A stretch of 64,000 nucleotides of DNA from Thermoplasmatota archaeon (lineage in GTDB: Archaea; Thermoplasmatota; Poseidoniia; Poseidoniales; Thalassarchaeaceae): NCBI GenBank assembly GCA_036154155.1, contig JAYZLP010000020.1, forward strand, positions 13,849 to 77,848, in the 5' to 3' direction. Made by a program: the position numbers and the translations under genes. Below the pieces are notes generated by a model that was given only the letters and a program-made list of their open reading frames with translations, ran no database searches and was not told where the DNA came from. Shown here piece by piece: positions 42,708 to 54,124 of the stretch. The number at the start of each line of letters is the position of its first letter. Within the stretch, counting starts at the first letter, position 1.

Positions 42708-44201
42708 TTGGAAATGAGTAACAATGAGCGTACATTGCTCAAATTCATGTTATCCGAACCATCCAGAACTTGGACCTTGGACGAACTCCTTTCAGGTGCT
42801 GGCTGGGATGACCAGGTCCATGTCGCAGGCTCGGGAATGGCTCTTTCCGAGTTAGGCCTAGTAACCGTAAATGAAGAAATCGAGGCCTTTGTTTCCCTGG
42901 GCGAAGAGGGTGTGAACGCCCATCGCGAGGGCCTCCTGGAGTTCAGAATTTGGAACTGCCTCTCTTCTCTGCCTGAATCAGAGAGGACGATGGATAGGCT
43001 ATTCGAGGAGGGGTTTGAGCGCCACGAAGCAGGTCCCGGCATAGGCCTACTGAAATCCATGGGGCTTTCAATCGATTCTGGAAGGCTGGTCGTCGAGGAC
43101 GAGATATCAATTTCTAAGCAGATTTCTGTAAGATCAGAATTCATCTCTTCTTTGTCAGAAGGCCCCGTTGCCAAGTTAAAACTAGATGACGAAATGGTTA
43201 GCCATTTCCTGGGGAGGAAGGGATTAATTCTGATCAATGAGGAAACCTCCAGATCTTGGTCACTAACCGATGCCGGCTCATCGATTGAACAATCAGAACT
43301 TGAGCATGTTGAGATGATCGGTGAGGTAACGCCAGAGTTGCTCCAATCAGAAAACTGGAGGGGTGCGAAGTTCAAGCCCTTTGATGTAAATTCACCAGCA
43401 CCAATTCCCATGGGCGGGCGCCCCCATCCCATGCAGGCGTTGATAGAGAGGATAAGACAGGTCTTCTTGGAGATGGGGTTCTCGGAGATAGAGGGGGACT
43501 TTGTGCAGTCTGCAGGATGGAATATGGACGCTCTTTACATCCCGCAATCTCATCCAGCAAGGACCATGCAAGACACCTTCTACCTGTCTGAGCCCAGTCA
43601 AATCGATGTCGATGAACACTATCTCGATCTTTGGTCCAAGGTTCATGAGCACGGACACGACACAGGAAGTAAAGGCTGGGGCGGCTCCTTTGACAAGGAT
43701 GAGTCACGCAAATCATTACTGAGGACTCATACGACTGTAAACACTGTGAGGCACATCGCGGAGAATCCCGATGAACCCTCAAGGGTTTTTGGCATTGGAA
43801 GGGTTTTCCGTCAGGAGACGATCGATCGAACCCACCTTCCTGAATTCCACCAGATTGAGGGGATAATCCACGAGGAAGAAGCTAGCCTTCCGATGCTTAT
43901 CACAACTCTGAAGACGTTCTACTCCAAGATGGGCTACCCAGATGTCCGAGTACGACCCGCCTATTTCCCATACACGGAGCCTAGTGTGGAGGTGGACATC
44001 CTTTGGAGGGGCCAATGGCTTGAGCTAGGGGGGGCTGGAATATTCCGCCCAGAGGTCACGGAGCCGCTAGGCTCCAAGTGGCCCGTGTGTGCATGGGGGA
44101 TGGGGCTAGAGAGACTGGCAATGATTATACTAGACCTGGACGATATACGGCAGTTGTACCAACCAGATCTTGAGAGGTTGAGTCGGATGCCCATACTCTG
44201 A
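42708..44201 (+). CDS. pheS: Phenylalanyl-tRNA synthetase alpha subunit (archaeal/eukaryotic type)
   Basis: Class II core motifs FRPAYFPYTEPSVEVDI, GAGIFRPEV, AWGMGLERLAMI. Confidence 0.85.
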   Translation: MEMSNNERTLLKFMLSEPSRTWTLDELLSGAGWDDQVHVAGSGMALSELGLVTVNEEIEAFVSLGEEGVNAHREGLLEFRIWNCLSSLPESERTMDRLFEEGFERHEAGPGIGLLKSMGLSIDSGRLVVEDEISISKQISVRSEFISSLSEGPVAKLKLDDEMVSHFLGRKGLILINEETSRSWSLTDAGSSIEQSELEHVEMIGEVTPELLQSENWRGAKFKPFDVNSPAPIPMGGRPHPMQALIERIRQVFLEMGFSEIEGDFVQSAGWNMDALYIPQSHPARTMQDTFYLSEPSQIDVDEHYLDLWSKVHEHGHDTGSKGWGGSFDKDESRKSLLRTHTTVNTVRHIAENPDEPSRVFGIGRVFRQETIDRTHLPEFHQIEGIIHEEEASLPMLITTLKTFYSKMGYPDVRVRPAYFPYTEPSVEVDILWRGQWLELGGAGIFRPEVTEPLGSKWPVCAWGMGLERLAMIILDLDDIRQLYQPDLERLSRMPIL

Positions 44202-46146
44202 CCACGATTACTGCCATAATCAGGAATGACAGGATCTCTCCACCATTAGGCGGGATAATTTCAGAGAAGTCCGCTATTGAATTCGATACTTCGGACGCCT
44301 GACCCGGAGGCCCTCCTCCGCAACCATCGGGCGGAGGTCCAATCCCGGGGCCCCATGTTTCGCCGTGTCCAGAGCAGTCAGCGCCACCTCCTTCCCCATT
44401 CTCAGAGTAAACCTCCCCTCTGTAGCAGTTTATGAAATAGGGAAAACCAATCCCTCCTTCTCCATTCTCCCAGGTTGTGTGATAGTGGTAGATTCCATCT
44501 GGATAGTCCGGCGTTGGACCGTATTGGCCGTTACAAGAATCCAAGTCTCCGATCCCAGGAGAATATTCGTAGTCATCTATTCCGTTATACCCGGTCTCGC
44601 CTTCCTTGAGCCTGTATGAGGATTTCATTTCAGTTAACTCTCCTTCATCATCCCATCCAACGAAACCATAGATTGGGTATCCATCTAAGGCGAAGCCCAC
44701 TATTGGAGAGTGACTTGTGATTGACCTCGTTGACTCCAAGCTGTAATCAGCCCAGGTTTCTCCACTTTCTTCATCGGGGTGCCAGTGCAAACAGTTCGCA
44801 TCGGCGTGGTAGTGAAACTCCCCGCCTGGGCCTGAGTGGGCATGACAGATCCCTAGCCACACATGCTGCCTATCTTCCTCGTAGGCCCCCTCCTGTCCAG
44901 CTACTGCATCCCCACCGGGCCCATCCTCAGGCCCAAAAATAGGCACCCCATTCGCAGCGAAAGCAACTGCTCCCCTTTCCGGTGCCATGGTGCAACCATC
45001 GGTGGAGATAGATGGATCACACCCAGTCTGATTAGTGGGCTCGAGTGGTATCGTCCATACATGTTCCTGTGCGCTTGTGCAGCAGCCGGGTCCAGACTCA
45101 AGGTCGTGATTTGGAAGGCCATTGGCGGAAATTTGTATATGGGTCTCGTTGGTGGTAAAGCTGAGTTGGCAAACGTGATTGTCAAATTCACTAGTGTTGT
45201 AGTCGTCTATTCCTTCAACCTGTTCTGTGGAGTCACACAATAGCACATCTTCCCACCATTCCTCTGTTCCAGCCTCGATCTCCTCCGATTGTTCATCGTA
45301 CTCGCACGAACCGTCATCCTCCTCAGCGCCAGAGTCGTAGTTGTTGGCCTCTGGGTCTGTGCAACCAGTGACTGGCGCTGGCTCGTCGTACTCGCACGAA
45401 CCGTCATCCTCCTCAGCGCCAGAGTCGTAGTTGTTGGCCTCTGGGTCAGTACACCCTTGAGTTGGTTCTGCTTCAGTTTCCAGAACAGTAATGGTGACAA
45501 TTTTCTGACTTGATGTTTCAGTCCATATGCCACACGTAGCCTCTAGTGAGACCGTGGTGTTTTCCTGTAGGTTGGAAAGCTCCAGAATGTAGCCCCCATC
45601 TTCGTCTATTGGCAGCCCTAGGCTGGACTCTTCGATATCGGTGGTGCTCCACCTCAATTCACATGTCGAAGCGTCATCGTGGATTACAAGTCCGGAGATC
45701 GGAGCATCCCCTCCACGTTCAACATGGAACTCGCCCTGAGAAGTCGTAAGCTCCGTTTCACTCTCTTCAGGATAGTGAATAATGAAAGCTTTGGACCACG
45801 ACGTCTCTTGCCCCAGACTGTCTATTGCCACAACCTTCAGTGCATGGCTACCCACATCTAGTTCAGAGATGTCAATTGAGATCACGCCATACTGATCGGG
45901 TAAATCAGCGATTTCATCTCCGTCTAGTGTGACCAATAGTGAGAGGTCTGACATCTTCTCGTCGCTTATGGTGATTCTAACCGTGTCAACCGTGCCTATC
46001 AGTATCGTATCGGGAAGATCGGAGTCAACAGTGGGCGCGCGATTAAGTCCCTCGTCTTCAACGCCGAAGAAAAGGATGCCCGCCATCACACTGGTAATCA
46101 TGAGCCCAGCCAGCATCAATGACCTCGCGGCCCCTCCATCTTCCAT
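44125..46146 (-). CDS. Secreted YHYH-domain protein with Ig-like N-terminal region, tandem Cys-containing 30-aa repeats and C-terminal hydrophobic anchor
   Basis: Signal anchor. Repeats TQGCTDPEANNYDSGAEEDDGSCEYDE x2. C-terminal GEFHYHADANCLHWHP ... YHYHTTWENG motifs. The 3' end overlaps the pheS 3' end by 77 nt. Confidence 0.6.
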   Translation of the reverse strand: MEDGGAARSLMLAGLMITSVMAGILFFGVEDEGLNRAPTVDSDLPDTILIGTVDTVRITISDEKMSDLSLLVTLDGDEIADLPDQYGVISIDISELDVGSHALKVVAIDSLGQETSWSKAFIIHYPEESETELTTSQGEFHVERGGDAPISGLVIHDDASTCELRWSTTDIEESSLGLPIDEDGGYILELSNLQENTTVSLEATCGIWTETSSQKIVTITVLETEAEPTQGCTDPEANNYDSGAEEDDGSCEYDEPAPVTGCTDPEANNYDSGAEEDDGSCEYDEQSEEIEAGTEEWWEDVLLCDSTEQVEGIDDYNTSEFDNHVCQLSFTTNETHIQISANGLPNHDLESGPGCCTSAQEHVWTIPLEPTNQTGCDPSISTDGCTMAPERGAVAFAANGVPIFGPEDGPGGDAVAGQEGAYEEDRQHVWLGICHAHSGPGGEFHYHADANCLHWHPDEESGETWADYSLESTRSITSHSPIVGFALDGYPIYGFVGWDDEGELTEMKSSYRLKEGETGYNGIDDYEYSPGIGDLDSCNGQYGPTPDYPDGIYHYHTTWENGEGGIGFPYFINCYRGEVYSENGEGGGADCSGHGETWGPGIGPPPDGCGGGPPGQASEVSNSIADFSEIIPPNGGEILSFLIMAVIVVRVWASDSTSQDLVGTTAVYRPGLV
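45296..45447. repeat. Perfect 62-nt identity within a 90-bp tandem direct repeat (2 copies) inside the YHYH gene
   Basis: tcgtactcgcacgaaccgtcatcctcctcagcgccagagtcgtagttgttggcctctgggtc occurs at 45296-45357 and again at 45386-45447. Confidence 0.85.
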
Positions 46147-46221: not shown

Positions 46222-47289
46222 TCACTCCTCAGAAAGAGAGACAATGTCCAGAAGGAACTCCGAGGGGTCCCAGTTGATGCCAGAATAAGCTACTCTTTTC
46301 CTCATCTGCTTGTCAATAATGAAAGTGGTCGTTGAGTGCCCTACCTCATACTGGCCAAGTGATTCGCCATGGGGGTCCGTGGAGCCCTCTGCCGAACTAT
46401 CCCCCGAGCCCTCTATTACGCAGGACAGCCAATCTCCATCCGGTCGTTCGTAGCCTTCGTCACACATGCAGTGGGCATTGGAACCTGAGCCCATAATCCA
46501 ACCGTGGTTATTGCAATCAGAGCCCGGGGGCATCACACTCAGGTTCGCATTGCTGGCCACCCATGCCAAATGGGTATCAGATGTCATTTCAATCGAATCA
46601 AGTCCACCGGGGTATTCCACCCAGGTTTCGTTAGTTATGTCCCAGGAATGAAGGTCCCAATCCCAGGTTTCGTTAGACTCCCAGCCTCCAATTTCCCCGC
46701 TCGAGAAGTTGTAACTAGTATTTGCTTCCACTAATGCCCCCTCGATATATTCGGTACCGTTCATTCCCGATCCCGTAGTGTCTTGCACCAAGGTTGAATT
46801 GTCAGGGAAAAGCACAACCAATCTGTTGAGGCTGTCTTCCGGGGGCTCACTGGCTGCTATGTGCTCGTTGTCCACAATCACATTCCACGATCTGTAAATT
46901 CCCTGAAGTTCAGAAACCGGGCCAGTCAAGTGAGGCCAGCCATATCCCCTCTCCTCGGTCCATTCGGATAAGTGATCGATTGTGTCCCTCGCCGGGTCGA
47001 TGGTTACCGAGACAATCACCACTTCATCGGAATGCCCCCCAAGATTCTCATTGACGTAGTCTAGATTAGACGAAATCACCAAACAAACATCGGGGCAATA
47101 AGTGTAAACAAAGGCTACCACAATCACCTTTCCCTGGTTATCGGAGAGTCTGAACACGTCCCCGTTCTGATCGAATAGGGCGAAATCAGGAGCATCTGGA
47201 GGGTCCTTGTATTCAATCCCAAGAATCTCAATTGACTCGTTTGAGTCTCCTAAGCACCCTGGGGCTAGGATGGACAATGTGATTAGCAA
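46222..47289 (-). CDS. senC: SCO1/SenC-family copper chaperone (thioredoxin fold) with large Cys/His-rich insertion, lipoprotein-like signal
   Basis: FVYTYCPDVCLV (CxxxC), HLTGP. The fold closes with FIIDKQMRKRVAY..; insertion CNNHGWIMGSGSNAHCMCDEGY. Confidence 0.7.
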   Translation of the reverse strand: MLITLSILAPGCLGDSNESIEILGIEYKDPPDAPDFALFDQNGDVFRLSDNQGKVIVVAFVYTYCPDVCLVISSNLDYVNENLGGHSDEVVIVSVTIDPARDTIDHLSEWTEERGYGWPHLTGPVSELQGIYRSWNVIVDNEHIAASEPPEDSLNRLVVLFPDNSTLVQDTTGSGMNGTEYIEGALVEANTSYNFSSGEIGGWESNETWDWDLHSWDITNETWVEYPGGLDSIEMTSDTHLAWVASNANLSVMPPGSDCNNHGWIMGSGSNAHCMCDEGYERPDGDWLSCVIEGSGDSSAEGSTDPHGESLGQYEVGHSTTTFIIDKQMRKRVAYSGINWDPSEFLLDIVSLSEE

Positions 47290-47318
47290 GACCTTTATTT
47301 TCGAAATAAGATAACCTC

Positions 47319-48068
47319 CTACTCATCAATTAGTAGCATAACGTCCTCTAATGCCAACTCAACATTCCAGTCCATGTCTCCCCACCAGACCCTCTGGTTC
47401 ATCTGCTTGTCCACAATGATGGTACCAGTCGTGTGGTCCACCCAATATTCATGGCTCCCGACGTGCTTAACCGAAACATCCCCATCATCCCCTTGCTGGG
47501 TCTCTAGTCCACATCCGTGGTCATCTACTTGCTCTCCTTCGGGTGTTTCGACACAAGTGTCAAATCCATCTGCAACACCATCTCCATCTGTATCGGTGTC
47601 GTACGCAGTAAGGCCCACATCAAACTCCAACCAAACCTCCTCTAGATCGCTCAAATTACCCGTTAGGTGTGGCCACTCAAGGCCCCTTTGCTCCGAGTAA
47701 TCTGCCAATATTGTGTGGTTGTCTGTCCATGGGTCGACGGTAATACTGAGAATCTCAACAGTTTCTCCGTATTCCTCACCCAGCAGCATCTGCAAGTAGT
47801 CAAGATTAGCACTGACTATCGGGCAAATGTCAGGGCATCGAGTGAAAAGGAATGCAATCACAACGACCTTGCCCTCGTACTGCGAGAATGAGAAGTACTC
47901 CCCATTCTGATCGATTAGGAGAAAGTCTGAAACTGGAACCGGCGGGTTGATGTCCTCCCCATAGAAAACATCAGAGTCTTCGTTCCCGAGGCATCCTGGG
48001 AGGGCGATCATTAGTACGGCACAATACGCCCAAAACCTACTCATCTGACTCCCCCTTCTTGCGTGCAA
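47319..48068 (-). CDS. senC: SCO1/SenC-family copper chaperone paralog with Asp-rich (DTDTDGDGVADGFD) insertion
   Basis: FLFTRCPDICPIV (CxxxC), HLTGN, IIVDKQMNQRVWW. Confidence 0.7.
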   Translation of the reverse strand: MHARRGSQMSRFWAYCAVLMIALPGCLGNEDSDVFYGEDINPPVPVSDFLLIDQNGEYFSFSQYEGKVVVIAFLFTRCPDICPIVSANLDYLQMLLGEEYGETVEILSITVDPWTDNHTILADYSEQRGLEWPHLTGNLSDLEEVWLEFDVGLTAYDTDTDGDGVADGFDTCVETPEGEQVDDHGCGLETQQGDDGDVSVKHVGSHEYWVDHTTGTIIVDKQMNQRVWWGDMDWNVELALEDVMLLIDE

Positions 48069-48561
48069 TAATTACTATTGCTAGTCCCAAGAGAATCAGT
48101 GATAGAGGGGAGAAATCAGAATCATTGCCGGCCGCTGCATCGTCTTGGTCATTGTTGAATGAGTAGCTCCCTGGGGCCACATTTTCAGTGTGGTTGTCTA
48201 GTAATATACTCAGGCTAAGTGTTTTCCAAATAGTGCCATTCGAGAAAATCTGAATTTCATAGTCTCCGGATGTCCAATTTATCGGGTCCAGCCAAACTCT
48301 GCACTCGTCATCCGTGCTTGTAGAAGATGGCCCTGCCGTGCAATCAATCTCGTATACTCCATCCGCCCCTATGTCCAACGTTATGACTCTCTCGAAGTCA
48401 ACCACATTGTAGAAAATCAATGTGTCATTCTGCAGTACCTGTGCTGATTCTGGCTGCAAACTCTCTCCTCTCATGACGAAGGCGAATGTGTTGGCCCCAT
48501 GAGCGGACACGGTTGGAGCGATCAACATCACAATCGCCAATGAGACAAGTATCCTTCTCAT
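48037..48561 (-). CDS. Small secreted protein, predicted mature N-terminal His, C-terminal TM anchor (putative CopC-like metal-binding protein)
   Basis: Signal MRRILVSLAIVMLIAPTVSA then HGANTF...; beta-rich; C-terminal LSLILLGLAIVIIARKKGESDE. Confidence 0.5.
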   Translation of the reverse strand: MRRILVSLAIVMLIAPTVSAHGANTFAFVMRGESLQPESAQVLQNDTLIFYNVVDFERVITLDIGADGVYEIDCTAGPSSTSTDDECRVWLDPINWTSGDYEIQIFSNGTIWKTLSLSILLDNHTENVAPGSYSFNNDQDDAAAGNDSDFSPLSLILLGLAIVIIARKKGESDE

Positions 48562-50519
48562 TCGTCACTAGCCTCCGCTGACCAAAGCGGAGGGTAGTTG
48601 TATCGAGGGTCAAAATCCTCATCGAACTGCACAACATAGATGCCGCTCACCATCTCTGAAATGAATACAAATCCCCTCGGATCATACTGCAGACCCCAGT
48701 CGAATGGAATCATGCATGAAGCCCAACAATCCGCCATATCGTATCCTAGTGTGTTAGTTGGGTCTTCAATCCACGTAGGTCCGGCTGGAAGGTAGTAACC
48801 AAGGGTGTGCGTTGGAGCTAGCTCCTCAATGCATTTGAACCCGCATTCGGGATTTGGGGACCCGCCAGTCCACACTATCTCTTCCCAAATTTTCCCGTGG
48901 TCAGTCAACCAGTTTCCAGCATGGTAGTGAGTCCAATAGACGTGTCCATTGACTCCTGTATCGCCATTGTGCGGGCTGAAAATGTATCCTCCGGGGATAT
49001 AGTGCTGCGGGTGTTTGGAGCCGTTGGCCAAGGTCCCCTCCCCCGGCAGTCTCCATTTGGATACGAGGAATGGCATTGTGGGGTCAGTAGTATCGATTGT
49101 CCACAGGAATCCCGTATGGCCCGGGTTGCTGCCATATTCGGGAGCAATAATGGTGTAGTGGCGCCAGTTCCCCCCGTAAGTCGCGTCTTCCGGTCCAGTG
49201 CCACATTCCGATGGCCACTTGGACTGGGGCACGTACTCACTAATTCCATTGCAGACCAAGTGGTCGTATGGAACTGCGTAGTGTATGTTGTCGTTGCCCT
49301 GCTCAGCATCTAGCCATTCTTCGGGAGTCATATTGGCATGACCTCCTCCGTCGGGGCCATACCATCCTGAGTCATCAGTAGGGCACCCCAGCCATCTGCC
49401 AACTTCTGGCGGCCAGGAGACTCCAAGTGGATCAGCTACCGAGGGAGGCTCACTGACGTCCACTATTCGAAGACCAGCTCCCCAATAAGAGGCCACAAGC
49501 AGCCGTTGCTTTGTGATAGGGTGAACGAAGTAAACGTGATCGTGATTGAATATCGACCCGCCGCAAGTGGTGTAAGGCTCGGGCGTGTATCCGCCCCACC
49601 TGAGTATTTCCCTGCTGGAATTATCGCCAGTGATCCAAGAGTCGAAACCATTAGGCACGTAGAATACCTGAGTCCCTTTGTAGAATGTTCCGCTACTGCC
49701 TTCAACCATTTCCGGATATGGGTCTGCGCCGAAAAGGAACAGGCTGCATTCTTCATAGGGGTCAAAGGCACCATCCCAGTCGCAATAAACCGCTAGGTCT
49801 TGATTGTGGAATCCGGCTGGCGGGTTGTTCCACTCAGCTACCTTCACAGGACGAGTTTTGTCTCTTACATCAATAACATCGAGCCTGTTAGTTCCACTGT
49901 TTGCATCATCGTCATTAGGTATCGGGTCCAGTTCGCTGTTCGTCAACTCATGGTTCACAAGGACCCAGTTGTTGTCCTTTGTTACCTTTATGTCAATCAT
50001 TCTGGCAACTTCTGCGTAATAGGTGGATAGCAAAATTATGTTATTGGGCTCACTGATATCGAGAATCTCGAATTGGTTGTAGCTAGAAACGTACGCATAG
50101 CAGCCACCAGTTCCATCGCCGTATATCTCGCAGTCCTCATGGAAGTTGCCTTCGATAGCTATCTCTGAGTTGTCCCCCGGTGTCGGTCCGACATTCTTGA
50201 ATTCCTCATCACAAGGCCTACCGGCAGTATCGTCAAGTTCCGCCGGCGGCTTAACATTGCCATCGCAATTCAGATTGTGGTAGTCGATAAGAACCGCATT
50301 CTCAGTCCATAGCCGGTGGGAGAATAAATCATTGTGAGAGTGATTTCCGTCCTCAATCTCCGTCACCGGATCTATCCAGCCAGAGTCCCCTCCTTCATTT
50401 CCACCTGAATCATCCAATATCGACAAGCATCCAGACAGTGGAGCTAGAACCATCAATCCGACCATTACCAAGCACGGACTAACCCGCATGCCCCGACGCG
50501 CGCGACCAACGCCTATCAA
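48558..50519 (-). CDS. LVIVD-repeat beta-propeller lipoprotein
   Basis: Lipobox LAPLSGC; repeats LVASYWGAGLRIVDVSEPPS etc. Confidence 0.65.
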   Translation of the reverse strand: MIGVGRARRGMRVSPCLVMVGLMVLAPLSGCLSILDDSGGNEGGDSGWIDPVTEIEDGNHSHNDLFSHRLWTENAVLIDYHNLNCDGNVKPPAELDDTAGRPCDEEFKNVGPTPGDNSEIAIEGNFHEDCEIYGDGTGGCYAYVSSYNQFEILDISEPNNIILLSTYYAEVARMIDIKVTKDNNWVLVNHELTNSELDPIPNDDDANSGTNRLDVIDVRDKTRPVKVAEWNNPPAGFHNQDLAVYCDWDGAFDPYEECSLFLFGADPYPEMVEGSSGTFYKGTQVFYVPNGFDSWITGDNSSREILRWGGYTPEPYTTCGGSIFNHDHVYFVHPITKQRLLVASYWGAGLRIVDVSEPPSVADPLGVSWPPEVGRWLGCPTDDSGWYGPDGGGHANMTPEEWLDAEQGNDNIHYAVPYDHLVCNGISEYVPQSKWPSECGTGPEDATYGGNWRHYTIIAPEYGSNPGHTGFLWTIDTTDPTMPFLVSKWRLPGEGTLANGSKHPQHYIPGGYIFSPHNGDTGVNGHVYWTHYHAGNWLTDHGKIWEEIVWTGGSPNPECGFKCIEELAPTHTLGYYLPAGPTWIEDPTNTLGYDMADCWASCMIPFDWGLQYDPRGFVFISEMVSGIYVVQFDEDFDPRYNYPPLWSAEASDE

Positions 50520-50554: not shown

Positions 50555-52300
50555 TCAGAACGTCGAAACTGGCCCATAGGGCTTGTCAATGTCCAATTGA
50601 ACGATGTATAGGCCACTAGTGATACAGGACAGGTATGTGTAACCTTCATGATATTCGGCAGCCCATAGGAAAGGAGTCCAACCGAAGTCATAGAACGCAC
50701 TATCCAAGGGAGTCCCATCAGCACCATGAGGCAGGTGGAAGCCAACCGTGGAGTCCATGTGAACGGCCGTTTTGTTCTCGTCTGAGAGTCCAGCAACCAT
50801 GAGTGTCTCGATATCTACTATCCATAGTCCAGCGTGGTAGCTAGACAAGTATATCCTGCCGTCCCAAGCACCACCGTGGCTATTGTCTGGAAGTCCTGGT
50901 AGACCAGTCTGGAAAATCTGAGTATCTGCGTTATGGGGGCTGAAAAGTAACCACTCTTCCCCGTCCGGTATGTGGTGGTCCCAAGCAAAGGGAATTTCCC
51001 ACCCATGGATCAATTCGGGTTTGAATCTGAGATTTCCATTTACCATTTCATATCCGGTTGTATCTAGAAGGTAGCCCATCCCAGTTCCTACGGTGGTGCT
51101 CAATACTTCTGTGGCGATAATGGTGAGGTGACGCTTACCGACCGGGTATCCAAGGTGACTAGCATCCACCATGTCATCAATCGGCTCTGCGTAGTGGATG
51201 TAAGATGCCCTCCCTCCGTTTTCATTGCTGGTACATCCGCAGTCTATCTCTCCATCACCATCGAAGTCTTCGAACTCCATCCACTGCCCAACCTCTGGTG
51301 CCCTCCAAAGGCAACCAGCCTGGGAACCTCCAGAAGCTCTACACAATGAGCCGTGCCAGAGGTATTCTGCAAGATCCTTTCCTGGATGGGGCACATCCGA
51401 AACGTCGAAGATCCTGAGTCCCGCTTCCCAATAAGCTCCGTAGACATAGGTCCTGGCAAAACGTGGATCATTCGAGTCCTCGCCTGGCCACGTTTGCACC
51501 GTCATATCGTGGATGTAGATCCATCCCCCAAGAGTAGACTCCCACGAAACTTCAGCCTCTCCAAGCTTCACAATCCTAGGCAGATCTCCATAAGCAGCGA
51601 AATTCAGATGTGCAATTGTAATGCCGCCGCATGCATCGCCCTGCCCTACATCGCATGATTCGTAGTCCGGATTAGCGACAAAGATGTACCATTCGTTGTC
51701 GATCATGTGAGTGTAAAGGTTGTGTGGGCCACTCGGGTGGTCAAAGTCGTACCATGAATCCACCCAGCTCGGATTAGACTTGTCCGTGACATCCACTAGT
51801 GTCACTGTGACCTGAGCTGGGTCCTCCCAAGATCCAACATTGGGATCTGCTGCCCCGGGGTCAACAAGCTGATTCTGCACGATTACATATTCCCTAGCAT
51901 TGTATTCCAGATATTTGACATCCAAGACCTGTGTGTTCGGGTCGTAGTAAACCCCAGTAACTGTTGTATTGTATGGATCAGTCACATCGACGATATGCAT
52001 TTCTGACCATCCTGCAATGTATGCATATGTTTTCCCATCAGGGGAGTCTGCAACTTGGACCTCGGCATTACCCGGGGCTGTAAGTGGATTGTAGCTAACT
52101 GGCAATATATTATCCGTGTAAAGAATATGCTGACTAGCGTTTCTATGATCATGCCCCTCTTCCTGGATCAGTGGGTCCTCCATTCCTTCGACAATCGTAG
52201 CACTATCTTCGGTTTCCTCTATCAGCATAATCGACGCCACAACTGCCGCCAAAACACAACCTGCAAAGGCCAGTGCCAGAACTATCCTCCCGGACTCCAC
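50555..52300 (-). CDS. LVIVD-repeat beta-propeller protein (paralog)
   Basis: Signal anchor; IAGWSEMHIVDVTDP, GAYWEAGLRIFDVSDVPHP, SYHAGLWIVDIETL. Confidence 0.65.
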   Translation of the reverse strand: MESGRIVLALAFAGCVLAAVVASIMLIEETEDSATIVEGMEDPLIQEEGHDHRNASQHILYTDNILPVSYNPLTAPGNAEVQVADSPDGKTYAYIAGWSEMHIVDVTDPYNTTVTGVYYDPNTQVLDVKYLEYNAREYVIVQNQLVDPGAADPNVGSWEDPAQVTVTLVDVTDKSNPSWVDSWYDFDHPSGPHNLYTHMIDNEWYIFVANPDYESCDVGQGDACGGITIAHLNFAAYGDLPRIVKLGEAEVSWESTLGGWIYIHDMTVQTWPGEDSNDPRFARTYVYGAYWEAGLRIFDVSDVPHPGKDLAEYLWHGSLCRASGGSQAGCLWRAPEVGQWMEFEDFDGDGEIDCGCTSNENGGRASYIHYAEPIDDMVDASHLGYPVGKRHLTIIATEVLSTTVGTGMGYLLDTTGYEMVNGNLRFKPELIHGWEIPFAWDHHIPDGEEWLLFSPHNADTQIFQTGLPGLPDNSHGGAWDGRIYLSSYHAGLWIVDIETLMVAGLSDENKTAVHMDSTVGFHLPHGADGTPLDSAFYDFGWTPFLWAAEYHEGYTYLSCITSGLYIVQLDIDKPYGPVSTF

Positions 52301-52354
52301 GACTCACGGGACACTGGCGGTCATGTTGAAGCCATCGCACCCCTACGGAGGGTC

Positions 52355-52945
52355 ATGAGGGCATCCGAGGTAGTGTTAGCTTCCCTCATCGTAATACTGC
52401 TGGCAACTCCTGTTACAGCTCACGAGCCGAAGGAATATACAATGCTGTTGAAGGAAGAGGGAGTGACTCCAAGTGGGGTTCAATATGGCATACTGGTTGC
52501 TACCGACTACTTGTTCTTCTACAATGTAGATAGCAGGGAAAACACTTCCCACAGGATTCTGATTGACGCCGATTCCGATGGGATTTTCAATGGTGCGGAT
52601 GATATTTCCACAGCGTGGCTTTATCCTTCCTGCGAGTTAAACGAGACCGGCCAAAGGATCGACCCAGATTGCCAGGTCACTGAATTGGTTCTCTTGGACC
52701 CCTCCAACGGGCTAATCCCCGGCAATATCTCAATGATGCACCAGATATTGCACAACGGAACAACGCATGACTCAGTTTTCGTGGTTTCATTCTCTAATGA
52801 CGACCATTCCACACAACCCGTCTCAAACGACGAATCGGAGCAGGAAATTGAGAATGACTCCTCTAGTCAGATTCTGAAGTCAGTCCTTCTACTATCTCTG
52901 GTAGGGATGGCCGTATTGTTGCCTAAGCTACTATCCGATGGCTAG
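52355..52945 (+). CDS. Small secreted protein, predicted mature N-terminal His, C-terminal TM anchor
   Basis: MRASEVVLASLIVILLATPVTA then HEPKEY...; C-terminal ILKSVLLLSLVGMAVLLPKLLSDG. Start trimmed because the upstream part of the ORF overlaps the LVIVD gene. Confidence 0.5.
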   Translation: MRASEVVLASLIVILLATPVTAHEPKEYTMLLKEEGVTPSGVQYGILVATDYLFFYNVDSRENTSHRILIDADSDGIFNGADDISTAWLYPSCELNETGQRIDPDCQVTELVLLDPSNGLIPGNISMMHQILHNGTTHDSVFVVSFSNDDHSTQPVSNDESEQEIENDSSSQILKSVLLLSLVGMAVLLPKLLSDG

Positions 52946-53003: not shown

Positions 53004-53080
53004 GGGCGCTTAGCTCAGCTTGGAAGAGCGCCTGGTTTGCAACCAGGCGGCCGGGGGTTCAAATCCCCCAGCGTCCACCA
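53004..53080 (+). tRNA. tRNA-Ala (anticodon TGC), CCA encoded
   Basis: gggcgct-ta-gctc-agcttggaa-gagc-g-cctgg-ttTGCaa-ccagg-cggcc-ggggg-ttcaaat-ccccc-agcgtcc-a-cca, G3:U70 pair present. Confidence 0.85.
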
Positions 53081-53098: not shown

Positions 53099-54124
53099 CT
53101 ATTGGTTCTCTCTGATTTCCAGCATCTGATTGAGAATCTTGAGAAGGCCTCTGAGAGTTACTTCGCTGATCCCAGCAACCTTGCAGACGTCGCTCTGGGT
53201 CCTAGGGGAGCTACTTTCTTGGGATGATTTGTAGAGGAGGACACCCGCAATCCCCGAGGGCTTCTTTCCTTGCCATGAAAGGTCATCTTTCACCAAATCC
53301 CATTTCTCTCTCACGTTCCCAAGTACAACAGGGGGCAAGCCGAGGTCAGAGTGGAACTTCTCAAAGTACTCTTCCGGACCAGTAATGTGATGCGCGCCTA
53401 GGGTTCTTGCTACTAGCCTAATGGTCCTCTTGAGCTCTTTGACTTCAACATCCTTCGTCATGTCAAAGGCCTCCGCAACCTCTTCTATTTTACGAGGGAT
53501 CTCCGCCTCCCTGGCAGCAACATATACGCAGGCGGCAGAAACTCCTCGAATACTCCTTCCAGTTACCAATCCCCTTTCCACAGCATGCCTGTAAAGTCCC
53601 GCGGCCTGTTGCTCAATCTGAGGGGGCAGGTCCCCTCTGTCCCTGATGAACTGCATGGCCCTGGACAGGTTCCTGCTACGGCTATCCCGCGTTTTGCTTC
53701 TCTGGTCAATTCGTTGCCTCCTCCTCCAGTCTCGAAGTGCCTTGCCAGACATCCCATGCCTCTTTGCCGAACCCGAGGTTAGGTCGGATCGCCTGATTTC
53801 AGTCGATAGCCCCTTGTCAGAAAGTGTGAGAGTAGTTGGAGCGCCAACCCTGCTTCTATCGTCCCCTCCCGAATGGTTGGTCCACTCTGCGCCAGGGTCG
53901 ATCATATTCTCAGCAGCAACGTATCCGCAGTCCGAACATGACGTCTCCCCTCTGATGTCATCATGGTCCCATGAGTTCGAGCCGCAGACCTTGCAAGGCC
54001 CGGTAACTTCCTCAGTCCCTCTGCTCCTAGAAGGTCGCCTCGATGGAACAATGGAACTCCTTCTAGCAGTTCTGCTAGAGGGATCCATTTTCTTTCCGGC
54101 TTGCTTCGCAGTGTCCCTTTCCAT
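53099..54124 (-). CDS. tfb: Transcription initiation factor IIB (TFB) with ~40-aa basic N-terminal extension
   Basis: Zn ribbon CKVCGS..CSDCGY, then two cyclin-like repeats. Confidence 0.85.
   Translation of the reverse strand: MERDTAKQAGKKMDPSSRTARRSSIVPSRRPSRSRGTEEVTGPCKVCGSNSWDHDDIRGETSCSDCGYVAAENMIDPGAEWTNHSGGDDRSRVGAPTTLTLSDKGLSTEIRRSDLTSGSAKRHGMSGKALRDWRRRQRIDQRSKTRDSRSRNLSRAMQFIRDRGDLPPQIEQQAAGLYRHAVERGLVTGRSIRGVSAACVYVAAREAEIPRKIEEVAEAFDMTKDVEVKELKRTIRLVARTLGAHHITGPEEYFEKFHSDLGLPPVVLGNVREKWDLVKDDLSWQGKKPSGIAGVLLYKSSQESSSPRTQSDVCKVAGISEVTLRGLLKILNQMLEIRENQ

Follow-up and report, generated by a model that had tools for sequence, protein, structure and literature searches.

A small-protein gene divergent from an LVIVD propeller

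We analyzed a window of 64,000 nucleotides from a Thermoplasmatota archaeon of the Poseidoniales (contig JAYZLP010000020.1), to which all positions given without a locus name refer. Its minus strand carries a block of genes encoding, in the order of transcription, a 581-aa LVIVD-repeat β-propeller, a second such propeller of 653 aa, a small paralogue of the protein studied here, two SCO1/SenC proteins, and a YHYH-domain protein (Table 1). Divergent from the first propeller gene, across a gap of 54 bp, a plus-strand gene codes for the small protein that is the subject of this work, and a tRNA-Ala adjoins it; both the divergent orientation and the neighboring tRNA had been pointed out in the initial annotation and are confirmed.

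Table 1. Features of the small-protein gene and the surrounding gene block (window coordinates).
Feature	Coordinates	Strand	Basis
Small-protein gene, 196 aa	52355..52945	+	ORF, translation, homologues, aligned start codons, variable upstream stops
Sec-type signal peptide, residues 1-22, predicted cleavage after V-T-A	52355..52420	+	hydropathy, helix 3-16, Ala at -1, V/A/S/T at -3
His23 codon CAC (codon 23), predicted mature residue 1	52421..52423	+	conservation; candidate ligand role by analogy with YcnI and CopC (PMC8424229, PMC12154828, PMC12537917)
Predicted extracellular Greek-key β-sandwich, cupredoxin-like, residues 23-151	52421..52807	+	AlphaFold2, Foldseek, weak Pfam Cupredoxin_1
Acidic loop D71-A-D-S-D75-G76-I-F-N-G-A-D-D83, DxDxDG type, possible Ca2+ site	52565..52603	+	conservation; Ca2+ from the motif
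Cys93 and Cys106, sole Cys pair, probable disulfide in long loop	52631..52672	+	conservation
D149-D150-H151, D-x-H motif at domain end, candidate second His and Asp ligands	52799..52807	+	conservation
Acidic linker, low confidence	52808..52870	+	pLDDT < 50 at residues 152-169; length and sequence vary in alignments
C-terminal transmembrane anchor, about residues 173-193	52871..52933	+	hydropathy, helix 169-193; in all full-length members
Conserved 18-nt element GTCATGTTGAAGCCATCG, middle of the 54-bp intergenic region	52320..52337	.	near-invariant across Poseidoniales loci
LVIVD-repeat β-propeller, 581 aa, N-terminal anchor, divergent partner	50555..52300	-	Pfam LVIVD
Second LVIVD propeller, 653 aa, paralogue of the 581-aa one	48558..50519	-	Pfam LVIVD
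Paralogous small N-terminal-His protein, 174 aa	48037..48561	-	start overlaps stop of 653-aa propeller gene by 4 nt
SCO1/SenC, CPDIC and downstream His, lipobox-like LPGC	47319..48068	-	Pfam SCO1-SenC, E 1.5e-24
Second SCO1/SenC, CPDVC and downstream His, lipobox-like APGC	46222..47289	-	Pfam SCO1-SenC, E 7.4e-25
YHYH-domain protein, last gene of block	44125..46146	-	Pfam YHYH, E 2e-33
tRNA-Ala	53004..53080	+	adjoins small-protein gene
Archaeal TFB gene	53099..54124

The gene opens with an ATG and forms the inner part of a longer listed ORF (52055..52945). Its 196-aa precursor begins MRASEVVLASLIVILLATPVTA/HEPKEYTM, where the slash marks the predicted signal-peptide cleavage site, and finishes ILKSVLLLSLVGMAVLLPKLLSDG; Kyte-Doolittle hydropathy in 15-residue windows exceeds 1.8 only at residues 1–23 and 173–194, and a full-length AlphaFold2 model (pLDDT 75) consists of a helix at residues 3–16, β-strands at 27–146, a disordered acidic linker at 152–169, and a helix at 169–193. 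The ORF, the hydropathy profile and the model thus bear out the layout first proposed for 52355..52945, namely a V-T-A/H junction followed by a β-rich body and a C-terminal anchor. The mature product is strongly acidic (28 Asp and Glu vs 7 Lys and Arg) and contains four Met; the five N-x-S/T sequons of the product would suit an exposed, glycosylated archaeal surface protein.

Translation start and a shared intergenic element

An ATG or GTG lies 21–23 codons ahead of the conserved His at every one of 55 related loci and in the window. Upstream of the aligned region, the reading frame stays open for anything from 2 to 121 codons across the same set, and in several loci (L004/L005, L014-16, and L049) a stop closes it within a few codons of the start. 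In the window, this putative upstream extension overlaps the start of the opposite-strand propeller gene, whose protein is 62–99% conserved, and a promoter-like element falls within it. The aligned starts, the variable upstream stops, the conserved propeller gene on the other strand and the promoter-like element together support the earlier suggestion that about 100 upstream codons of the listed ORF are untranslated, and the first two of these lead us to reject translation from 52055. Gene callers gave some extended or truncated family products (e.g., P0007, P0040, and P0079-P0092). Truncation goes together with an aligned GTG start at the locus, which we read as its cause; the apparent peptide GHVEAIAPLRR of the extended calls is a conserved DNA element rather than coding sequence.

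The promoter-like element, an 18-nt sequence found once in the window and displaying G[TC]CAT twice, 12 nt apart, is near-invariant in the form GTCATGTTGAAG[C/T]CATCG in about 45 Poseidoniales loci, even where the small proteins are 45% identical; other lineages have TATA-like TTTATTTAT or GATTTATAC at this position. Because its center lies about 27 nt from each of the two divergent start codons, the element suggests one shared bidirectional promoter from which both genes would be transcribed as leaderless mRNAs.

A Poseidoniales family with His next to the signal peptide

The close family of the small protein comprises 94 members at no less than 48% identity, all of them without names and from marine metagenomes and metagenome-assembled genomes (MAGs). 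Searched with a profile, 1.84 billion cluster representatives yielded only 114 matches at E-values up to 0.001, and a one-genome-per-species scan with alignment A1 recovered 45 loci, the nearest to the window protein being in MAG UBA438 (96% identity). All 45 are labelled Poseidoniales, Thalassarchaeaceae/Thalassarchaeum, or unspecified euryarchaeote/archaeon, and as far as found the family is specific to the Poseidoniales. Searches of Pfam, NCBIfam and PDB sequences with the protein and with family profiles gave nothing significant, the sole signal being a weak one for Pfam Cupredoxin_1, and the literature that we searched, including the topics LVIVD/copper, Poseidoniales/copper or cupredoxin, and YHYH/SCO1, held no description of it. 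With no name in the libraries searched, we regard it as a previously undescribed family.

Conservation was counted on a 205-member alignment, in which the residues on either side of the predicted cleavage site were scored in the 185 members with an intact N-terminus. Comparison of orthologues had been put forward in the initial annotation as a check on whether the His right after the signal peptide is invariant, and the outcome is positive: position +1 is His in 181 of the 185 members (98%) and Asp in the other four. Position –1 is Ala in 177 of the same 185, and with both of these counts so high the arrangement is not a chance one; position –3 is mostly V, A, S or T. The mature domain has further conserved positions. 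The Cys pair is kept almost throughout (C93 in 203/204, C106 in 202/204) and is invariant in alignments A2 and A3. In the large alignment the D-x-H motif at the domain end (H151 in 198/199, D149 in 191/197) and the acidic loop (D71 in 200/204, D75 in 196/201, G76 in 171/201) are nearly invariant too. H66 is present in 182 of 203 members and absent from the window paralogue, and W88 is kept only in the close subfamily (113/205). A His that is exposed by signal-peptide cleavage has been found to predict metal binding across different folds (PMC12537917).

Separately, we observed that most members of the family and many exported or membrane proteins of the gene block end in -DE or -EE (...GESDE, ...AEASDE, ...LLIDE, ...SLSEE; seen in the window at 46222..48561 (-) and 48558..50519 (-), and among members of alignment A2), which could be a sorting or topology signal or merely reflect an acidic proteome.

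The minus-strand small protein follows the same plan, with a predicted VSA/HGANTF junction, a β body and a C-terminal hydrophobic helix. The initial annotation had stated that the two proteins share little primary sequence and had left open old paralogy or convergent use of an N-terminal His. The similarity was understated: the two are 27% identical over their full length (BLASTP E 2e-11) and align as one family, having in common the Cys pair, the D-x-H motif, a DxDxDG-like loop and the strand pattern. That E-value and the common motifs uphold paralogy and lead us to reject convergence; given this homology, the shared design is inherited. The mature paralogue contains just two His, namely His1 and the His of the D-x-H motif.

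A modeled all-β mature domain of soft cupredoxin type

When modeled by itself from a 69-sequence alignment, the mature domain gave a confident AlphaFold2 prediction (pLDDT 94.1, pTM 0.86) with eight strands, all β. Foldseek searches of the PDB with this model returned first the N-terminal domains of the phage baseplate protein BppU (E about 1e-5, TMq about 0.41) and after them many two-domain laccases, Escherichia coli EfeO (TMq 0.50), and NirK. Cupredoxin domains as a whole matched at TM 0.35–0.50, below BppU in rank, and no match exceeded TM 0.5 in the PDB or viral libraries; the viral library returned the same phage domains and no LPMO. The full-length model had likewise matched mainly helix-plus-sandwich phage baseplate proteins. 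As TM stays at about 0.4 on the refolded mature domain, we take the BppU matches to reflect generic sandwich similarity. Pfam Cupredoxin_1 matches 4 of 38 diverse members weakly, with a best E-value of 0.006. The predicted fold is best described as a Greek-key sandwich of the cupredoxin type without a close solved relative, a soft assignment because phage baseplate sandwiches come out on top and no TM exceeds 0.5.

The two ends of a standard cupredoxin chain are found together at one pole, the one facing away from the classical copper site. It follows that His1 and a D-x-H motif placed after the last strand can plausibly meet, which would bring His1 near D149 and H151 in space. Residues 71–83, in turn, resemble a DxDxDG calcium loop and may bind Ca2+.

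These features also allow a reading in which the N-terminus holds no transition metal: the protein would be a glycosylated, Ca2+-stabilized adhesin or scaffold, and its first His would serve signal-peptidase recognition or folding. The near-invariance of the acidic loop, the five sequons, the non-metal nature of the phage sandwiches with the best Foldseek E-values and the four members with Asp at +1 are all in keeping with this. Yet His at +1 is not required by signal peptidase and is nevertheless found in 98% of members, H151 is conserved alongside it, the paralogue keeps just these two His, and the genomic context of copper chaperones described below is conserved. We hold this explanation to be very unlikely.

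Gene neighborhood and the LVIVD propellers

The two propellers of the block are about 25% identical by tblastn and 31% identical in a multiple alignment, and ten His are invariant across both of their families (H50, H52, H58, H193, H264, H369, H391, H443, H456, and H489), a set that includes an H-x-H-x5-H motif right after the N-terminal anchor. Judged by these residues, the LVIVD propellers could be His-ligated metal-cluster enzymes. Propeller profile searches returned no PDB match and, in Pfam, only LVIVD/EPTP repeats; among the matches listed in the homologue search were only close Poseidoniales proteins without names.

The association of the small gene with the 581-type propeller is a consistent one. 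The propeller gene lies divergent from the small gene at a distance of 45–60 bp in 51 of 55 loci as scored, or in 53 of 55 when the first copy in L006/L007 is counted. In the other two, L054 (5290..6540) and L055 (744..1767), the gene immediately upstream of the small one, in the same orientation, is SCO1, and the propeller is divergent from SCO1; the L055 small protein happens to be among the rare variants with Asp after the predicted cleavage site (AEA/DGD). The propeller/small-protein pair is kept in four flanking contexts: between PheRS and TFB; between RtcB/AlaRS and NUDIX, with or without YHYH and the second propeller; between Gln synthetase/PPIase and an M20 peptidase, without SCO1; and in the SCO1-first arrangement of L054 and L055. 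SCO1/SenC genes are usually near the pair in related loci, and the pair is also kept without SCO1 nearby (L004, L005, and L010), while L006 has two propeller plus small-protein pairs. The conserved gene order is in part a matter of shared descent, as all loci come from one archaeal order. The two partners differ in their rates of divergence, the propeller being 62–66% identical in the same loci in which the small protein is down to 26–35% (overall propeller range across related loci, 62–99%).

Other components of these neighborhoods deserve mention in their own right. The YHYH protein, conserved in the block in related loci, has its 'GCTDPEANNYDSGAEEDDGSCEYDE' segment in duplicate along with several motifs rich in His (HYHADANCLHWH, YHYH), and its 988-aa counterpart in L006 additionally matches Pfam FSH1 and TSP_3. 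The lineage that has no SCO1 close to the pair has, overlapping the small gene at its end, a 175-aa ORF (L004, 10620..11147; L010, 9018..9545) whose product combines a hydrophobic segment at the N-terminus with the motifs HYHF and HPIHTYD; this product has no Pfam match and may be another His-rich partner.

The N-termini of the 653-aa propeller and the two SCO1 proteins (46222..50519 (-)) carry lipobox-like motifs (LSGC, LPGC, and APGC), after each of which the sequence is polar, suggesting that this archaeon anchors lipoproteins; in the 581-aa propeller, FAGC is embedded in a longer hydrophobic stretch that resembles an uncleaved anchor more. Unlike the SCO proteins and the 653-aa propeller, both small proteins have a free N-terminus and a C-terminal anchor, a layout that would suit a functional need for the terminal amine.

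A candidate Cu(II) binder paired with a propeller

Taking these lines of evidence together, we propose, with a confidence somewhat above even, that the small protein is an archaeal analogue of YcnI and CopC, tethered outside the cell and binding Cu(II) for the propeller. On this proposal signal peptidase would cut after V-T-A and make His23 residue 1, whose free amine and imidazole would chelate the metal; His151 and Asp149 from the D-x-H motif at the end of the sandwich would complete the site, giving the two-His-plus-Asp set of the CopC Cu(II) site. The overall design of signal peptide, N-terminal His, cupredoxin-type sandwich and C-terminal transmembrane helix would then be that of Bacillus YcnI. 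At the cell surface, the small protein would take up or retain Cu(II) and pass it to, or act alongside, the His-rich LVIVD propeller encoded divergently from the same 54-bp region, with the two SCO1/SenC proteins of the block also taking part, and the second propeller would be served by its own copy at 48037..48561. The analysis establishes the layout of the protein, its conserved residues, the paralogy, the start site and the gene linkage; signal-peptide cleavage, the choice of metal, the arrangement of the site and the handover to the propeller are what we infer. Copper is the most likely metal in view of the two SCO1/SenC proteins and the YcnI and CopC analogies, and the four members with Asp at +1 are a caveat to it. 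The initial annotation, which had not named a function and in which the copper context was implicit, turns out to be largely right in its interpretation.

Two published precedents underlie this proposal: YcnI uses its N-terminal His to bind a single Cu(II) and depends in vivo on this site as well as on its C-terminal anchor (PMC8424229, PMC12154828), and the Cu(II) site of CopC C0-1 consists of two His and one Asp (PMC12154828). The fixed pairing with the small gene suggests that the His-rich propeller is its client or partner.

The same pairing could also mean that the small protein belongs to the propeller enzyme as a stoichiometric subunit and is not a chaperone. There is one small protein per propeller, in the divergent pair at a fixed 45–60 bp and in the second pair with a 4-nt overlap; L006 has two such pairs, and the pair persists without SCO1 in L004 and L010. 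Set against this are the much faster evolution of the small protein (26–35% vs 62–66% for the propeller), which is unusual for a tight interface, the N-terminal hydrophobic anchor that the 581-aa propeller itself possesses, and the absence of type-1 copper ligands for electron transfer. On balance, we consider a subunit role fairly unlikely.

A different metal such as Ni, Zn, Fe or Co would call for another kind of function, in which the protein acts as a surface scavenger for uptake in a metal-poor ocean, like the 'anglerase'/DUF4198 proteins, and is unrelated to the SCO proteins. Ni is indeed among the metals bound by N-terminal-His proteins found by signal-strapping (PMC12537917), acidic residues far outnumber basic ones in the mature protein, and its top structural match by TM-score, EfeO, is part of an iron-uptake system. 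However, a conserved permease or transporter gene adjoins the small gene in none of the related loci examined, the recurrent neighbors are SCO1/SenC proteins with an intact CxxxC plus His, and the two-His-plus-Asp set matches the CopC Cu(II) site (PMC12154828). Such a scavenger is in our estimate distinctly unlikely, less probable than the subunit role.

The proposal of a tethered Cu(II) binder can be taken further to the block as a whole, which comprises two LVIVD propellers sharing ten invariant His, one N-terminal-His partner for each, two SCO1 proteins and a YHYH protein. These parts might constitute an unrecognized extracellular copper-enzyme system specific to Marine Group II archaea, with the propellers as multinuclear copper enzymes and the small proteins as their dedicated Cu(II) donors, a conjecture by analogy that we regard as rather doubtful. 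His-ligated copper propellers include N2O reductase and thiocyanate dehydrogenase, and the SBP56 methanethiol oxidase has SCO1 among its gene neighbors. If such a system is real, it would represent a novel oxidative activity at the cell surface of abundant uncultured archaea. Copper in the surface ocean is scarce and tightly complexed, and the Poseidoniales have been reported to be its most abundant archaea and to be uncultured.

What can be stated more narrowly is that the family bears the signature of N-terminal-His copper proteins (YcnI, CopC, LPMO-like) and is tied to two conserved His-rich surface propellers. Should the small protein bind Cu(II), the YcnI/CopC principle would extend to archaea on an independent sequence family, the LVIVD propellers would become candidate copper enzymes, and its small, easily expressed 130-residue domain would offer an entry point to the role of the gene block.

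Comparison with known copper-protein systems

Against the known families of this kind, sequence comparison is uniformly negative: the window protein and 38 diverse members gave no match at E-values up to 1 to the DUF1775 (PF07987), CopC (PF04234), PCuAC or LPMO families. The resemblances are those of layout. Like YcnI/DUF1775 proteins (Bacillus subtilis YcnI and PcuD of Bradyrhizobium), the small protein combines a signal peptide, an N-terminal His, a cupredoxin-type sandwich and, at the C-terminus, a transmembrane helix (PMC8424229), and its gene neighborhood is enriched in copper-handling proteins. Unlike DUF1775, which has been described as bacterial, the family was found only in archaea, namely the Poseidoniales; its candidate site would use a second His and an Asp (D-x-H) in place of the Glu and Trp of the monohistidine brace of YcnI; and its partners are LVIVD propellers and SCO1 rather than CopC/CopD.

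The candidate ligand set would correspond to that of CopC C0-1, a small Greek-key sandwich in which an N-terminal His after the signal peptide is likewise joined by a His and an Asp from close to the C-terminal end (PMC12154828); the corresponding residues here would be His23, Asp149, and His151. In contrast to CopC, the domain is larger, with a 37-residue disulfide-bridged loop and a C-terminal anchor, its D-x-H motif runs straight into the linker with no further strand, and its family profile has no PDB sequence match. CopD was found neither in the window block nor in any related locus examined.

The domain also has points of contact with classical cupredoxins (plastocyanin, azurin, and halocyanin) and the EfeO domain in its strand order and in a pattern resembling x-N-D-x-V-x-[WF]-x-N-x-D-x-x-x-N-x-T-H. 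We read the alignment as placing H66 at the position of the first type-1 His ligand. Unlike those proteins, it lacks the C-terminal Cys/His/Met ligand loop, and its sole Cys pair (C93 and C106) is in a central loop. We reject a type-1 blue-copper electron carrier for want of that loop, and since H66 is in addition lost in the paralogue, an electron-transfer role is unlikely.

Fungal LPMO-like X325/Bim1 proteins are thought to handle copper rather than cleave polysaccharide. They resemble the small protein in having a His-brace-type N-terminus on a β-sandwich with a C-terminal surface tether, but they show no sequence similarity to it, are eukaryotic, and are anchored by GPI rather than a helix. 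LaX325 was a weak match in the first, full-length fold search (E 0.017) and no longer ranked among the top 50 for the model without helices. For LPMOs proper (AA10 and relatives), Pfam gave no match, and neither LPMOs nor fusolins figured in the 50 best fold matches of the mature domain from the PDB or the viral library, so that we reject this reading; nor does the protein belong to PCuAC (PF04314), there being no Pfam match, only four Met, and no H(M)x10Mx21HxM motif.

Our best reading is that the small protein works like YcnI and CopC while being a member of neither by sequence. What is new is that a family of N-terminal-His sandwich proteins is archaeal, restricted to the Poseidoniales, and coupled to a partner as unusual as the LVIVD propeller.
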